Sequence record: MN850576.1
Origin: Escherichia phage ime
DNA: 64,000 bases
Direction: 5' to 3' (one strand)
The translations under genes and the position numbers were made by a program. The notes under the pieces were generated by a model. The model was given only the letters and a program-made list of their open reading frames with translations, did no database searches and was not told the origin of the DNA. This document shows, piece after piece, positions 13,226 through 29,317 of this stretch; position 1 is the first letter of the stretch, and each line of letters begins with the position of its first letter.

Positions 13226-13477
13226 ATGACGAAGATTGACTTGAATGCTGGCGACCATGTTGTTGTCAAATGCATCGGAGATTATCTTGGATTCACAATC
13301 GGTAATACTTACGAGGCGGTAGTGGCGAAGGTTTATCATGATAAAGTCCTCAGTCTTGTATTTGACTGCGATGATGATGGAGATGACCGATACGTCTGTG
13401 AGGTGCTGGCACGAGACGACAGTGAAGACCAGAAATTCTTGGTTATTGAACTGAACGGTATTTTTGTAGAACGTTAA
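13226..13477 (+). CDS. hypothetical protein
   Basis: ATG 13226 with CAAGGAG RBS. Confidence 0.45.
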   Translation: MTKIDLNAGDHVVVKCIGDYLGFTIGNTYEAVVAKVYHDKVLSLVFDCDDDGDDRYVCEVLARDDSEDQKFLVIELNGIFVER

Positions 13478-13505
13478 TTTAAAACAACATAAGGGGACTC
13501 TTACT

Positions 13506-13811
13506 ATGGCTAAATCTAAAGTTGAACTGTTCACCTCTCTTCCTTCTGACACTGCAGAGCGTGATCGCCTTCGCAAGACAATCGAAGAACTGGTGGAACT
13601 CCAACTTCAGATTAAAGATCTGAAAGATGCCATTAAGGATATCATTCTCGTTGAGAAGCAGGATCACCTGTATTCTCCTAAATTCATCAAATCTCTGGTG
13701 GCTACCGAGTTCGATATTCGCTATGAGGCTGAAAAACGTCGAGCTAAAATCGAAGAAGAGGTTGAGCACATGTCCGAGGCAGACATTCTGTTCAAACGCT
13801 CTGTAGAATAA
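13506..13811 (+). CDS. hypothetical coiled-coil protein
   Basis: TAAGGGGA RBS. Confidence 0.5.
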   Translation: MAKSKVELFTSLPSDTAERDRLRKTIEELVELQLQIKDLKDAIKDIILVEKQDHLYSPKFIKSLVATEFDIRYEAEKRRAKIEEEVEHMSEADILFKRSVE

Positions 13812-13820
13812 TGACAAAAA

Positions 13821-13845
13821 GAGGGGCCCAAGCCCCTCTTTTTAC
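13821..13845 (+). terminator. rho-independent terminator
   Basis: GAGGGGC-CCAA-GCCCCTC followed by TTTTT. Confidence 0.6.
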
Positions 13846-13866
13846 TATCTATGAAGGAGATTTGAG

Positions 13867-14199
13867 ATGGGTATACCGATCACTGTAAAAGAATTGAATG
13901 AACGTGATGCAGGTGGTCTATGGCCTGCACGAAAAATACGCTGCATCCGTATGAAAGAGAACCTTGAGCATCTTGAGCAACAGAAACGGATTGAGGTTGG
14001 TGATATTTTCGAAGTATTTTATTCTGATCGCCGTAACTGGGAAACCATTCAACCTTCCGGTTTTGTTCTTGCTAAGCTTGACACTGGAGAAGTGATTGTT
14101 CCTGGGTTGGATATTGTCTTCGAAATTATCCAGGAGTGGGATCCGGACAAGATTAGATACGAAGAGCTATTCGGTGAAGGTATTATCAAACCTGTGTGA
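13867..14199 (+). CDS. hypothetical protein
   Basis: AAGGAGA RBS. Confidence 0.5.
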   Translation: MGIPITVKELNERDAGGLWPARKIRCIRMKENLEHLEQQKRIEVGDIFEVFYSDRRNWETIQPSGFVLAKLDTGEVIVPGLDIVFEIIQEWDPDKIRYEELFGEGIIKPV

Positions 14200-15417: not shown

Positions 15418-15546
15418 CACACAATTAGCTGCCAGGCTAAAGTGCTGGAAGCGCACCTATAACACATCTTTCAACTAAATTTCCTACCACCACAATCACT
15501 TACCTCCCACACATGACTGTTTGCTTGTTTAGTGAGCAGTCATGCC

Positions 15547-15574
15547 TTGACATTCTTGCCTATCCTGATAAAAT
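15547..15574 (+). promoter_or_regulatory. sigma70-like promoter reading into ORF-free region
   Basis: TTGACA 15547-15552, TAAAAT 15569-15574; no ORF of 60 aa or more for ~2 kb downstream. Confidence 0.4.
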
Positions 15575-16992
15575 TAAGTTCTTCTCTTTTCTTTTACCGA
15601 GTAATTCGGGTTTTCTGTTCTCTTCGGTTTGAAGGGGTATGGAGATACACCTGAGTGAACAGGGTGAACAACCGAACCATTGGCTATGGCATTAGCATGG
15701 CGAAGCGGACGGGTGACGAAAGAGGGGCCGGAGGACACCAGTCACTGCCATATGGTATATGGGTGATAACCTGAAGAGTCTGAATAAGTGTTTAAGTACC
15801 AGTCAGAGGAAAAGGTGAATGGTAGCCGAAGGGGGAGGGGGGTTTCTTGTATCTTTAATTTGTATATTATGTATACACTTGTAAACCAATCTCATCTGAA
15901 TCTGTTTACCACACAAAGCGGATAGAGACAAATATCACCTATTAAACTTGAATTATTTATAGAAAATACCACAACACCACTTAAGTCTTTGATTTTACAC
16001 ACAAATCCTACAGATATTCAACCTCCATATTTAACATACTTGTAACATATTCCATACTCTACCTGTCTGATCAATCTACCCAACCACATCCTTCATATTT
16101 TCCCTGTCTGTACCACCCCTGCCCCGCCGGGAGTCCCGTCATATCTGGCTTTCCAGTAAATAGCACACCCACAAATATCATTGCCTGAAGAGGGTTTCAT
16201 CCCATAATACATGCCTTACCTGAAGAGCGCTTCATACACCACGTAAATTTTTTAATTGACCTGCAATTTTCCCGTCATGACCCCCCCCCTGCCCCGCCGG
16301 AGAGGTTGGCTTTTCCCACACAGACCTGAAGAGTCAGCCAGAAATATCTGAACAGGTCCAGTTCTGCCTTGTCATGAGCCGTAGCGACTGGAGTGCTGCC
16401 AGGCGGACGGAATGGGAATACTTCTCATTCTTATAATAATTCTCAAATATCGAGGCAGTGAGGCAAATTAATAGGTGAGGCCGTTCACACAGTGGCACAA
16501 CATTTGCAATCTATTTTGTGAGGGTGAATGAGAATACCTATCATTGTGAGAACCTTTATCATTACGGGCAATTTAACATAATACCCATTATGCGCACCAC
16601 TGGCGATACATACAGGGATTGATACCATGAGTTACAGTTTACGCATATAACAATCATATTTCTTACTATTTGTGTGGGATATAGTTAGCAACCAATAGAT
16701 TAGATATTGACCTACAGACTTCCAACCGTCTAGACGTCTAAACGCCCACACACCAAGGGTTATACATACATTACTGAATGTAAACAGGGCCGCAAAAATG
16801 CTACCATACCAGTTTGTAAATTTTTCATGCAGCACTTGACAAAGAGGAGAAAAACTTGTCTGACATAATGTGACCTAACTGACACAACATGACACTTTTA
16901 CACACCTATTAGTTTACACACTGGATTGTTTACATTCCTGATTGTTCACATGCTAACCATTTACATGATTGACTGTTTACACACCGATAATC

Positions 16993-17244
16993 AGCCATGC
17001 CATTCGTTTGCATGACAATAATTATACATGACAATAATCGCACTGATTATAATTAGCATGACATAATATAAAAGCAGGGCAACTATTAGCAGATCTATAG
17101 TTGCCTTGCTTGTTATGTCATGATTAACTAAATACAAGGCAACTATGATCTGATTAATAGTTTGCAGACAAACTATCACGGGGGTGATGGTTACTGCTTT
17201 TATATTATGTCGCGACTCCGTCGCGCCATGCCATTCGTTTGCAT
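16993..17244. repeat. 20-bp direct repeats (GCCATGCCATTCGTTTGCAT) flanking nested inverted repeats; candidate ori/pac
   Basis: Direct repeats at ~16993-17012 and 17225-17244; inverted-repeat arms 17060-17077/17194-17211; palindrome GGCAACTAT-N10-ATAGTTGCC 17078-17105; ATAGTTTG-CAGA-CAAACTAT 17157-17176. Confidence 0.6.
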
Positions 17245-17859
17245 AGTTGCCTTATTGTTACAGATAAAATAATTGTATTGTTAATTATTTCTTATCTTTC
17301 TATTAGTCATCTAATGATTTCAGTTAATATAGTAACGTACAGTAAACATTAGACGACTAAAGATTTCTCTGCTTATGGTAACCTAACGTGACAATTCCAG
17401 ACTGTTTACGAAAAATGTTGACACCTGGGCCGATTTATGTTATGCAGTTTACACGAATAATTATTTTATGCAGGTATTGACTATTCCGTTATTCTATGGT
17501 TGGAATAAATGCTTAGCAGGCTATAGAATGGCGAGCGTACGTAAATTCTGAGATCTGGCGGCTATAGTTATACTCGATTTTTCACGTAGAAAACGCTTTT
17601 GTAGCTATGTAAGTGTATGACTTATAAAGATTTTTAGTTGTTGACAAGATATTGGAGATGTGCATCAGATTAAATTTTGTGCAATAGCTACATTACGTGC
17701 ACTTTTGGAAGAAAAAACGTGTAAAAATGGCCCTGCTACCACACAATGAAAGATTATGCAATAGTTATTTTATATGTATATTTGTACAGTGTGTGGGATT
17801 AATGGCTAGTCAATTATTCCACTTGCCAGGTAGGGCCGTTTATGGTAGGAGAAGAGCAG

Positions 17860-17888
17860 ACAAAAAGAAAGGGGCCTTTAAGCCCCTT
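17860..17888 (-). terminator. rho-independent terminator (minus strand)
   Basis: GGGGC stem-loop; on minus strand followed by TTCTTTTTGT. Confidence 0.55.
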
Positions 17889-17906
17889 GATAATTCAGTT
17901 AAGAAA

Positions 17907-18326
17907 TTATAATGATTCGTATATTTCAAAAATCCGATTTGCCAGGTCGTTACGGTAGCGGAATTTTTCATCACGCTTGATCATTAAATCCTTATAGCCG
18001 TACTCTTTAAGCACTTCATTAACTTTATGGCGGCATACCTGCATATTATCTTGAGCGTCACCAATAAACTTGTTGCTGTGGTGCATTGCTTTAATTTCTT
18101 CTTCCAGGACCAGGGCAACTACCCGGACCGGATCAAGCTGGTAGGCGGTAACATCCATGCGGCATTGTAGACGGCTTTTAACGTCTGCCACCGGATATAC
18201 TGCAACCTCTTCCCCGTCAACATTAACAATAACTAGTTTACCATCGATTTCGAATCCTTTCGCCGCCGGACCGTGACAAAAAGCGTTATCAAAGCTATAT
18301 GCCGGATTATCAGATTTAATGTTCAT
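17907..18326 (-). CDS. hypothetical protein
   Basis: ORF track. Confidence 0.5.
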   Translation of the reverse strand: MNIKSDNPAYSFDNAFCHGPAAKGFEIDGKLVIVNVDGEEVAVYPVADVKSRLQCRMDVTAYQLDPVRVVALVLEEEIKAMHHSNKFIGDAQDNMQVCRHKVNEVLKEYGYKDLMIKRDEKFRYRNDLANRIFEIYESL

Positions 18327-19405: not shown

Positions 19406-19573
19406 CTTCAAGATAAATGTTACCCCACCCCATGGCAGATGTCAACGGTTTTTATAGTTCTTATATGACAGGCAGGCCCGGTGATTGTCTCCACCCGTCG
19501 CCAGGTGCCTGCCGTGAAACAAGTATAACAAAAAACAGGACCATTGCAAGCCCTGTTTTGTAGTTTATAAGGA

Positions 19574-27551: not shown

Positions 27552-27647
27552 AAATTTATCCTCTTTACTGGTTAGTGCGGTGTTGTTCACCTTGTAGGGT
27601 AATAATACCATGATTAACCTTGTTGTCAACGATTATTTTAAATTATT

Positions 27648-27773
27648 TTTATGATAGAATCCACCTGCCGCCCCCGCCAGGTTAACCACCATTTTTTCGT
27701 ACTCTTCTTTATGTTCCCGCGCTTCTGTATCATTAATCACTACATTTCCCAGGTGAGTAGCATTACCTTTCAT
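27648..27773 (-). CDS. small protein (41 aa), below track cutoff
   Basis: ATG with GAAGAGGAGG RBS; hand-translated; overlaps GCCCCGCCAGG motif. Confidence 0.25.
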
Positions 27774-28030
27774 TTTTGTACCTCCTCTTCAATTGTTTAC
27801 CCTACAGCATGGGCCTACCAGGTTTGCAAGATTTCACCCTCTCCCACCTGGTCAGTTAGGTCCTGCCAGGCTGGCCCCGCCAGGTTGCAACGGTTAGCGC
27901 ATCAGGTTAGAAAAATTTTTTGAAAAGGTGTTGACAGCGGCCCCGCCAGGGGGCACAATATACCTATCGAAAGGACGGCAGGCACCGGTGACGGTGGAGA
28001 CAACCACCGGGGATGGGCGCTGCATAAAAT

Positions 28031-28053
28031 GAGAACGGTTATCATTATCATTT
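28031..28053. promoter_or_regulatory. Fur-box-like sequence A
   Basis: GAGAACGGTTATCATTATCATTT; about 15/19 match to GATAATGATAATCATTATC by eye. Confidence 0.3.
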
Positions 28054-28165
28054 AAAAATTTATGCAAAAAATCCTTGCCTTCTTTGTCCTGTGTGATACT
28101 ATAATAACAAGCCGGGGCAACAGGGGCCGGGAGACAATCACCGGGCCTGCCCGTTATTCTGCAAA

Positions 28166-28184
28166 CGAGAATGATTATCATTCA
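28166..28184. promoter_or_regulatory. Fur-box-like palindrome B
   Basis: GAGAATGATTATCATTC; core AATGATTATCATT versus consensus AATGATAATCATT. Confidence 0.35.
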
Positions 28185-28300
28185 AAATTCTAAATGAGAA
28201 CTCCTCGCATTTAATAAATTTAATTAGCATGCTAATTACCCTCCGTAACAATTTCCTATAAAACAGTATCCCATAAAATATTCCCATATAGAAATTTTAA

Positions 28301-28482
28301 AAATCCATTTCTGAAAACGAAAAATCGATTTCGTCCCCAAAAATTTCAGGTCGAGAGCTGGAACGATTTCCAGAAAATCCGATTCAGAAAACGAAAAACA
28401 GATCGAGTACTTGGAAATTTATCGAGAAAAATTTTCAGAAAATTCAATCTTTGAAACGAAAAACAGATCGAGTACTTGGAAA
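28301..28482. repeat. degenerate tandem iterons (~65-75 bp period), AT-rich
   Basis: GAAAACGAAAAACAGATCGAGTACTTGGAAA twice (28385/28451) plus variant at 28311; AAATCCATTT motif recurs to 28760. Confidence 0.5.
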
Positions 28483-28787
28483 GCTGTACCGCAACTTCAA
28501 GATAGTGGCTGGATTATTGCCATAAAAGGCCAAGGGCGAGTGGGAAAGTTCTGGTAGAAGGATGTGAGCATGTGTGGGAAAATCTATAATGGTGGCCTGG
28601 AATATGGTGCAAACGATAGGATGAGTTATTCAGCTTGTCGCGCCTACTCTGAAAAATCCATTTTAGTTTTCGATCCATTTTCTGATTTTCTAAGAATTTT
28701 AAAATATCCAGCCCGGTGAAATATCAAAAGGAGGAAATCCATTTTAGAAATCCCCCTTATACTTGATATGCCAGGAATTTTCAAGTA

Positions 28788-29117
28788 TCAGTTGTCTTTG
28801 TTTTTAGGTTTGTACATGCGCAGAGGTATGGTCTTTGTAACATTCCATTTCCTCAACCCTTCCCAGCTCCAGTTGTGGGCGTGGTATCCGGTTATGCATG
28901 CACTACTGGAGTGATCGTAAGCATAAGAGAACGCTAAGCGCACCAGGTGGGGCCAGTCCTTCCATGGTTGTGGACCGTAAGCTTTTCTCCAACACCGACA
29001 CAAACTAAATGTCTCAAGGATAGGAAGGATAACAAACCCATACACTGTCACCAAAATAGTCAGTGCAATGATTGTCAGGAACACATACCCTGCAGTTGAA
29101 ATGATGATCTCTGTCAT
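28788..29117 (-). CDS. membrane protein
   Basis: ORF track; hydrophobic N-terminal half. Confidence 0.45.
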   Translation of the reverse strand: MTEIIISTAGYVFLTIIALTILVTVYGFVILPILETFSLCRCWRKAYGPQPWKDWPHLVRLAFSYAYDHSSSACITGYHAHNWSWEGLRKWNVTKTIPLRMYKPKNKDN

Positions 29118-29317
29118 TTGTCGTCCCCTTTCTTACGGATATAGATGTGAGAACCTGCCTGTATATAAATTTCTCGACCATCTTCTGCGAAGATGTGGAA
29201 TACACGGTCACCTTCGTACTCAATACGAGATATCTTCATAATGGTCTTTCCACCTGGGATACGGATCTCGTCCCCCACAGCGATGTTCCATGCAGATTTA
29301 AGCTTAAACATCTGCAC
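29114..29317 (-). CDS. hypothetical protein
   Basis: ORF track. Confidence 0.45.
   Translation of the reverse strand: MQMFKLKSAWNIAVGDEIRIPGGKTIMKISRIEYEGDRVFHIFAEDGREIYIQAGSHIYIRKKGDDK

Follow-up and report, generated by a model that had tools for sequence, protein, structure and literature searches.

In Escherichia phage ime, degenerate direct repeats lie in a stretch that carries no open reading frames of 60 aa or more, and this raises the question of whether they belong to a replication origin, as an earlier note on this DNA had suggested, or to some other kind of control element. We analysed the locus within 64,000 nucleotides of the phage sequence (record MN850576.1; hereafter the window), to which positions refer unless another locus is named. 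Phages of the rV5-like group (Vequintavirinae) find wide use in collections for typing, biocontrol, and therapy, and the rV5 genome paper could not place the replication origin. In the literature, we found no description of the module region, nor any transcript map, origin mapping, or pac position for the subfamily, and the module appears to be undescribed in what is searchable. Our analysis indicates that the repeats are part of a strongly conserved, non-coding cis module that is common to the subfamily Vequintavirinae, phages of enteric bacteria, and is probably a control site on the DNA, and it supplies a precise candidate for an origin, pac, or transcription-unit function.

The gap and its conservation

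The window comes from a Vequintavirus (rV5-like) phage, and its region at 27700–29200 shares 94–96% identity with many members of that group, phage nomine among them (96%); 113 phage records cover at least 80% of it. Here, the repeats occupy the right half of a 1014-bp non-coding gap (27774–28787), which is bounded by small leftward genes (27633–27773 and 28788–29117, both on the minus strand) and separates two leftward early operons. The gap sits in a long leftward unit that also holds rIIA/B, the helicase, the primase-helicase, and the DNA polymerase, with the polymerase gene about 8 kb to the right of the gap. The eight proteins flanking the gap are small and have no Pfam match, no replication initiator or DNA-binding gene was found to adjoin it, no annotated terminase lies within 20 kb of it, and the 64-kb window contains no tRNA or tmRNA genes.

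The earlier description of the repeat stretch as free of ORFs was borne out, as there is no ORF of at least 60 aa in 28182–28787 and no ORF in the gap survives comparison with relatives. In an alignment of the gap with 12 relatives (10 GenBank records and two from IMG/VR), five ORFs of at least 30 aa inside the gap were tested, and stops or frameshifts interrupt each of them in one or more of the 12; a protein-coding reading of the gap was rejected on the grounds that the frames are not kept among relatives. Hypothetical proteins have been annotated over the module in the GenBank records of rV5 (ORF198/199; 13283–14122 of locus L024), FV3 (ORF182/183), GAP31 (GAP31_043A), and PVP-SE1 (gp202), and the GAP31 and PVP-SE1 records place small ORFs over the repeats, with one flagged 'poor ribosome-binding site'. 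Because the frames are not conserved, the ORF annotations across the module in these four phages are probably spurious. Such small annotated ORFs speak for the gap being decayed coding sequence or neutral repetitive filler, but three observations make this explanation highly improbable: conservation of the gap exceeds that of the flanking genes, relatives have the annotated ORFs disrupted, and the architecture is kept across genera.

As a measure of conservation, we used the mean pairwise identity among 13 Vequintaviruses. This gave 94–95% for the blocks with promoters, hairpins, and palindromes (27870–28215), 92% for the tandem units, and 84% for the block to their right, the last value being lowered by two genomes with a rearranged end, as compared with 63–77% for the flanking genes. 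At 92–95% against 63–77%, the non-coding blocks are, judged by these alignments, under stronger constraint than the neighbouring proteins, and about 1 kb that several records annotate as 'hypothetical proteins' is thus a non-coding element so constrained. Separately, we noticed a 30-codon sub-ORF on the minus strand (28138–28230; MLIKFIKCEEFSFRILNDNHSRLQNNGQAR) that stays open in all 13 Vequintaviruses, has a Shine-Dalgarno-like GGAGGG upstream in most, and overlaps a palindrome and a hairpin. It is not conserved in other genera, and it might just conceivably encode a micro-protein.

Elements along the gap

The left edge of the gap (27774–27930) contains GC-rich repeats (GGCCCCGCCAGG), three within the edge itself and a fourth inside the spacer of the first predicted promoter, P1 (27939). 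This edge has 60% pairwise identity and carries deletions in five of the 12 relatives, and in it a possible weak leftward promoter for the downstream operon (TTGCAA at 27829–27824, a 19-nt spacer, and TAGGGT) was read by eye, with low confidence. P1 itself is a predicted sigma-70-like promoter on the plus strand (27931–27959), with TTGACA, a 17-nt spacer, and CACAAT (10 of 12 consensus matches), and it points rightward, antisense to the flanking genes, with hexamers that are invariant in the 13 Vequintaviruses. A few nucleotides 3' of the predicted P1 start is the first copy of a hairpin element (27978–28023, plus strand; core GGAGACAACCACC), whose fold has an energy of -26.3 kcal/mol (z = -2.9). 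Promoter P2, predicted from reading the sequence, follows on the plus strand at 28075–28102 (TTGCCT, a 16-nt spacer, and TACTAT, with TG at the extended -10), for which TATAAT at 28100–28105 is an alternative -10, and next comes the second hairpin copy (28115–28152, plus strand; core GGAGACAATCACC). In this layout, each rightward promoter is followed within a few nucleotides by a hairpin (core GGAGACAAYCACC), after which comes a palindrome that fits GAGAAY-N3-TMTCATT. The promoter cluster that had been offered as an alternative to an origin is therefore partly right, as the predicted cluster at 27931–28102 is directly upstream and reads into the repeats.

Within the window, the hairpin core motif has three exact occurrences, and four if up to three mismatches are allowed, against 0.62 expected. 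A third promoter-hairpin copy is located at about 19445–19570 on the minus strand (core GGAGACAATCACC), where it is in sense orientation, directly after a terminator-like hairpin and directly before the rV5 promoter P168, an arrangement that recalls the promoter-stem-loop cassettes of T4-type phages. In those PeSL (promoter-early stem-loop) cassettes, an early sigma-70 promoter and a stem-loop are likewise repeated among small early genes, and the window has three such copies (27931–28023, 28075–28152, and 19445–19545 on the minus strand). However, the likeness concerns the promoter-hairpin part and not the tandem units, the hairpin core of the module is sequence-conserved across genera, and a role of the module in shuffling is only putative.

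Palindromes resembling Fur boxes accompany these promoters. Scored against the 19-bp sequence GATAATGATAATCATTATC, which we take to be the Fur consensus, palindrome 1 (28025–28052; GAGAACGGTTATCATTATC) has 16 of 19 matches, the best in the 64-kb window, and palindromes 2a (GAGAATGATTATCATTC) and 2b (AAATGAGAACTCCTCGCATTT, degenerate), which are 29 bp apart at 28161–28213, reach 15 of 19; on this scoring, the sites at 28031 (16/19) and 28167 (15/19) score highest in the window and would pass as putative Fur boxes. With its spacing, the 2a/2b pair looks like an operator array. The palindrome family GAGAAYNNNTMTCATT has four matches in the window against 0.02 expected, at 28031–28046, 28167–28182, and 16530–16563 (16530 and 16548), and these fall only in two non-coding regions; the family is also found in 25 of 26 related loci. 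The pattern suggests that one conserved factor, possibly host Fur, may bind both non-coding regions. The idea of a repeat-binding regulator, also raised in the earlier note, gains something from this, in that a putative operator-like palindrome array lies between promoters and repeats.

Further to the right, 28209–28308 is the second least stable 100-bp duplex segment of the 64-kb window (0.07th percentile in a nearest-neighbour profile) and a candidate unwinding element, within which there is a perfect 18-bp palindrome (TAATTAGCATGCTAATTA; 28221–28238). The repeat stretch had been called AT-rich, and its GC content (28301–28760) is indeed lower than that of the window, though only modestly so (0.38 versus 0.434; 4th percentile of 460-bp windows). 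The tandem units alone have a GC content of 0.32–0.33, and the right block one of 0.31.

The repeats noted earlier are real, with positions that had been off by 1–2 nt (28385, 28451, and a variant at 28311, where we find 28387, 28452, and 28313) and a spacing that measures 65 bp rather than 66 bp. Here, the 31-mer GAAAACGAAAAACAGATCGAGTACTTGGAAA at 28387–28417 has a second copy with two mismatches at 28452–28482, 65 bp on, and a variant that starts at 28313, whereas shuffled sequence is expected to give no match to it. A repeat search lengthens the repeat to 57 nt, with three copies at 28287, 28361, and 28426, spacings of 74 and 65 bp and 61–82% identity. These define three tandem units of 65–74 bp on the plus strand (28287–28482, starting at those same positions), and each has a short A/T tract, AGAAAATCCRAT, GAAAACGAAAAA, and (A)GATCGAGTAC. 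Tandem Repeats Finder misses the units because the copies are too degenerate, and A-tract phasing in them has no clear 10–11-bp periodicity. A CRISPR-like mini-array was rejected, as the sequence between one 31-mer and the next is itself homologous, forming part of the 57-nt units, and the units are position-conserved across genera. Since the repeats are more conserved than the flanking genes, and four or five genera have the same three in the same order, comparison among relatives argues that they are functional and not chance.

A shorter motif, AAATCCATTTY, has three exact copies (28301, 28654, and 28735) against 0.17 expected, along with the degenerate copies AAATCCGATTC at 28375, AAATTCAATCT at 28440, and GATCCATTTTC at 28672, and all of these, exact and degenerate, are on the plus strand. 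That this motif recurs at least five times, as had been claimed, holds if the degenerate copies are counted, but not for the exact ones. After the units comes a central spacer (28483–28651; 71% identity, with indels), in which the sequence drifts and the length is kept, and which has no excess RNA folding (z = +1.3 and +0.6). The right conserved block (28652–28727, plus strand) then carries ATCCATTTT at 28656 and 28674, AAATATC at 28702 and 28720, and TTTTCTGATTTTCT, an inverted copy of the unit motif CAGAAAAT; in phages YP-6 and 241Ecol014PP, its motifs are kept in a different arrangement.

At the right edge of the gap, a hairpin with an 8-bp stem is found on the minus strand (28728–28758; AAGGGGGA ... 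UCCUCCUU, followed by UUGAUAUUU), in the loop of which sits the third and last AAATCCATTTT. Its folding is stronger on the minus strand (z = -2.0) than on the plus strand (-1.1), and the inverted repeat is perfect in most relatives; YP-6 and 241Ecol014PP have a different hairpin with a U-tail at the same position. We regard this hairpin as the probable intrinsic terminator of the upstream leftward operon.

Corresponding loci in other genera

In a low-stringency BLAST search, the hairpin and palindromes (about 28114–28223) were the sole segment kept at 77–88% elsewhere, with matches in Seunavirus, Mydovirus, Certrevirus, Henunavirus, and the Stephanstirmvirinae phage phAPEC8. The layout is syntenic in the first four of these, where a 0.7–1.2-kb gap among leftward genes contains rightward sigma-70-like promoters, a 5' hairpin, Fur-box-like palindromes, three units, a spacer, and a right-hand motif block. 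A predicted promoter is present at the position equivalent to that of P2 in 10 of 10 related loci from six genera, with hexamers kept and spacers diverged, and in the other genera the rightward promoter lies about 40 nt before the hairpin core. Moreover, by eye, an additional promoter can be read in Seunavirus and Mydovirus, immediately in front of their units (TTGACA, 18 nt, and GAAAAT, or TTGACT, 17 nt, and GATACT). The palindromes number one to four per genome in related phages, and the 29-bp spacing recurs where there are at least two.

Arrays of three units with a 68–76-bp period, all motifs on the plus strand, are found in GAP31, PVP-SE1, 4MG, KpS11, Mydo, Hena1, and POP15. In six genomes, the units can be aligned to one shared pattern, AAAAATTTTTT .. 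AGAAAAAATACGATYT .. TTGAAAA .. GATCGAGWACC, and the 31-mer is the Vequintavirus version of its second half; variants of the unit motif are GATCGAGWAC, CTCAAGTC in Hena1, and the set of phAPEC8, whose repeats at the corresponding place differ (a pair of 72-nt units lying 138 bp apart). Between genera, the units match by position (the first with the first, and so on), and they have therefore been kept individually and not homogenised; among homologous arrays, we saw no variation in unit copy number. The spacer after the units measures 157–173 bp in seven genomes of four genera, with unrelated sequences, and the right block of other genera has AATATC two to four times together with ATCCATTT-like motifs, the AATATC copies being spaced 12 bp apart in the Seunavirus loci, Mydo, and POP15. 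Certrevirus units have 49–51% GC. GATC sites are clustered in the units of Seunavirus, Mydovirus, and Certrevirus (4–7 sites per module), but this clustering is weak in the present phage and absent in Hena1.

An IMG/VR search for wider homologues returned only two close loci and two already known genomes, bacterial genomes gave a single match, due to chance and located within a coding gene of a Clostridia MAG, and E. coli chromosomes gave no match to the module. Among plasmids, there is a single match at 93% identity, to positions 17137–17997 of CP057073.1, a record of 137.5 kb labelled 'plasmid' that belongs to an E. coli assembly from cattle faeces; since 137.5 kb is the size of a whole Vequintavirus genome, the probable source is a phage assembled together with its host, or a carrier state.

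Some features of these loci are not shared with the window. In other genera, a separate promoter precedes a GC-rich element of about 85 nt (CGCCACCCCACGGCGAAAAGGCGGGGCTAAC ... GGAAGGTGGATCGCCGGTAG; L004 2320–2405, L005 2335–2425, L003 2385–2470, and L019 1330–1410), which in Hena1 shows apparent compensating changes, and for which a pseudoknot fold is conceivable; Rfam has no match to it, and the 64-kb window lacks it. The first gene of the rightward unit in Seunavirus and Mydovirus encodes a small DUF7170-family protein (Pfam E = 1e-24; genes at L004 2069–2260 and L005 2097–2279, with equivalents in L017, L018, and L022), and Vequintavirus, without this gene, has the second promoter-hairpin-palindrome copy instead. 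The central spacer of POP15 (L020 1882–1950) contains about 1.7 copies of a 41-nt repeat (CCAGCAATGAGTAGCTTATGACTCATTA...), and F2M1E has a similar pair.

Candidate functions of the module

The best single reading of the module, which we put forward tentatively and with well under even confidence, is an origin of replication fired by rightward transcription. Here, host RNA polymerase starting from P1/P2 would open or R-loop the DNA, a candidate phage or host protein on the iterated motifs would shape the initiation complex, and a primase-helicase like gp4 of phage T7, together with a family-A polymerase, would then begin synthesis, the Fur-box-like palindromes between promoter and units serving to gate transcription. 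In favour of such an origin, predicted P1/P2 aim at the easily melted segment at 28209–28308 and then at the units, the spacer, and the right block, so that promoters which match the consensus and are invariant are directed into the candidate unwinding region, as in a transcription-primed origin. The repeats are far beyond chance, selection acts on non-coding DNA with no ORF conserved, the three-unit order recurs across genera, a rightward promoter is present in every genus, and GATC clusters occur in some. Moreover, a spacer of fixed length and free sequence fits two protein-bound arrays that would be held at a set distance, and the separate repeat set of phAPEC8 is the pattern to be expected if binder and site co-evolve.

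The primary origin of T7 consists of tandem promoters (phi1.1A/1.1B) and then an AT-rich stretch, and T4 oriF/oriG of a promoter and then a downstream unwinding element. In the same manner, the tandem promoters of the module read into an easily melted A/T-rich segment, and rV5, like those phages, has a family-A polymerase and a gp4-like primase-helicase without a known dedicated initiator; its replisome comprises PolA (the family-A polymerase) and the gp4-like primase-helicase, with no initiator and no mapped origin known. The module differs in that its promoters are of the host sigma-70 type, that it adds three long position-specific units, a palindrome array, and a right-hand motif block, that its AT-richness is not conserved in Certrevirus, and that priming by a transcript is only putative. 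If the module is an origin, it would amount to the T7 design adapted to host RNA polymerase and supplemented by iteron-like units.

The origins of T4 oriE and lambda carry iterons. With iteron origins in general (lambda ori, P1 oriR, T4 oriE with RepEB, and the satellite PLE ori with RepA_N; PMC7145576), the module shares direct repeats in non-coding sequence beside low-stability DNA, and repeat sequences that diverge between lineages. On the other hand, its units are 65–75 bp long as opposed to about 12–22 bp, there are only three, each individually conserved, and no cognate initiator gene, DnaA sites, or IHF sites were identified. The iteron origin proposed in the earlier note thus stands in part: three direct units and short iterated motifs are present and conserved in a non-coding gap, and an origin is still the best single guess, but there is no adjacent Rep gene or other initiator, no conserved AT-richness, no skew switch, and a second region competes. 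As for DnaA boxes (TTWTNCACA), there is no match in the gap and no enrichment in the window, and no IHF sites were identified. The published skew analysis of rV5 gave only skew changes tied to changes in transcription direction, with none at this position. Also against an origin are the missing initiator gene, the AT-richness that is lost in the Certrevirus units (49–51% GC) and in the central spacer, the GATC clustering that is not universal, and the 15.4–17.7-kb non-coding region, which is at least as origin-like. Finally, a rightward fork would meet the long leftward operon head-on.

Other functions have to be weighed against this origin. Rather unlikely, in our view, is that the module would be an operator or insulator array between the two early operons with no role in replication, binding a Fur-like or H-NS-like host factor or a phage regulator, and setting the timing of the downstream operon or blocking read-through. 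The gap does lie exactly between a leftward terminator and the next operon, the palindrome family far exceeds chance (4 versus 0.02 expected) in both non-coding regions, with 15–16 of 19 matches to the Fur consensus, and the palindromes hardly vary among phages that infect different enteric hosts, which is what binding by a conserved host factor would predict; the minus strand also has TCGATAAATT at 28416–28425, which is presumably the H-NS nucleation motif. Yet an operator or insulator needs no three 70-bp position-specific units, no length-conserved spacer, and no further motif block, the palindromes overlap no predicted promoter, and the binding factor is deduced from consensus matching alone; other regulators with AATGA...TCATT half-sites are possible. 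In a variant that we think quite unlikely, the module would be a rightward non-coding unit, and not an origin, coupling phage development to host iron status; equally unlikely in our view are the ways in which it might do so, a Fur-box array gating a three-unit RNA/DNA scaffold or titrating Fur as genome copies rise. The Fur-box-like array is near-unchanged in lytic phages of Escherichia, Salmonella, Klebsiella, Cronobacter, Proteus, Erwinia, and Pectobacterium, and as the same operator family marks the second non-coding region, both regions would be controlled together. If these Fur-box-like operators are real, they would, unexpectedly, tie a strictly lytic phage to the iron regulation of its host.

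P1 pac carries GATC clusters, and known pac sites are located within or next to the gene for the small terminase. A pac site of the kind used by headful phages, with terminase on the left array and the right block and the spacer between them looped and cut, must exist in the Vequintavirinae, whose genomes are circularly permuted and terminally redundant, and the module resembles SPP1 pacL-pacC-pacR and P1 pac in that two motif arrays flank a sequence-indifferent centre of fixed length, and in its GATC clusters, present in several genera. The module is, however, among early genes near replication genes and away from terminase genes, so that it is not adjacent to a small terminase, GATC clustering is not universal, and the accompanying promoters, hairpin element, and palindromes would be without a role in such a scheme; a pac function therefore seems to us improbable.

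About as unlikely as an operator array, in our view, is the possibility that the P1/P2 transcripts, starting with the hairpin at their 5' end and running through the A-rich repeat array, are themselves the product. Such a non-coding RNA might be directed against the converging leftward operon, by an antisense or interference mechanism, or might serve to sponge up a host factor that binds RNA. The predicted rightward promoters, a few nucleotides before the hairpin element, are conserved in every genus, the unit motifs are all on one strand, the plus strand is A-rich (AT skew of +0.11 to +0.28), opposite to the flanking genes, and ATG is absent from that strand across the array in every genome examined. 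Because the motifs are one-stranded, the plus strand is A-rich, and the promoters read into the array, transcription through it is likely. A structured RNA product from the array is, however, not supported. Rfam gave no credible match in the window or in the phAPEC8, GAP31, and PVP-SE1 loci, even at E of up to 1–5 and with type III antitoxin RNAs included; the unit array has no excess folding on either strand (z = -0.9 and +0.1), and the folding of array, spacer, and right block is not significant, the leftward terminator hairpin being the exception. RNAalifold on the hairpin element, using an alignment that was not hand-curated, gave no covarying consensus stem and only trivial pairs, and no rightward terminator was found. 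Moreover, what is conserved is primary sequence and motif spacing, and ATG and CAT are depleted on both strands, so that composition may explain the missing ATG.

A repeat-based non-coding RNA is used by the rV5-like phage PhiTE (PMC3475682), and its pseudo-ToxI has in common with the module tandem repeats in a non-coding, probably transcribed stretch of a Vequintavirinae genome. The pseudo-ToxI repeat, though, is 36 nt long and ToxI-like, and the module has no such similarity or Rfam match. We rejected the possibility that pseudo-ToxI corresponds to this locus, as it lies at 106,714–106,772 of PhiTE, beside tRNA genes and in a different gene cluster.

The second non-coding region of the window, at 15420–17700, is larger and likewise ORF-free, lies between converging rightward and leftward gene blocks, and is a competing candidate for an origin or pac. 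The 'non-coding' box of the rV5 paper was considered as a match for the present gap and rejected, since it spans 104,013–106,618 of rV5, between ORF163 and ORF164, and corresponds to this second region. Here, the window has its lowest GC content (0.33) and its least stable DNA, and there are no tRNA genes. The region also contains TTTACA-type repeats with a 16-bp period (16897–16981), an 18-nt perfect inverted repeat (17060/17194), a 20-nt exact direct repeat (16994/17225), and long inverted repeats.
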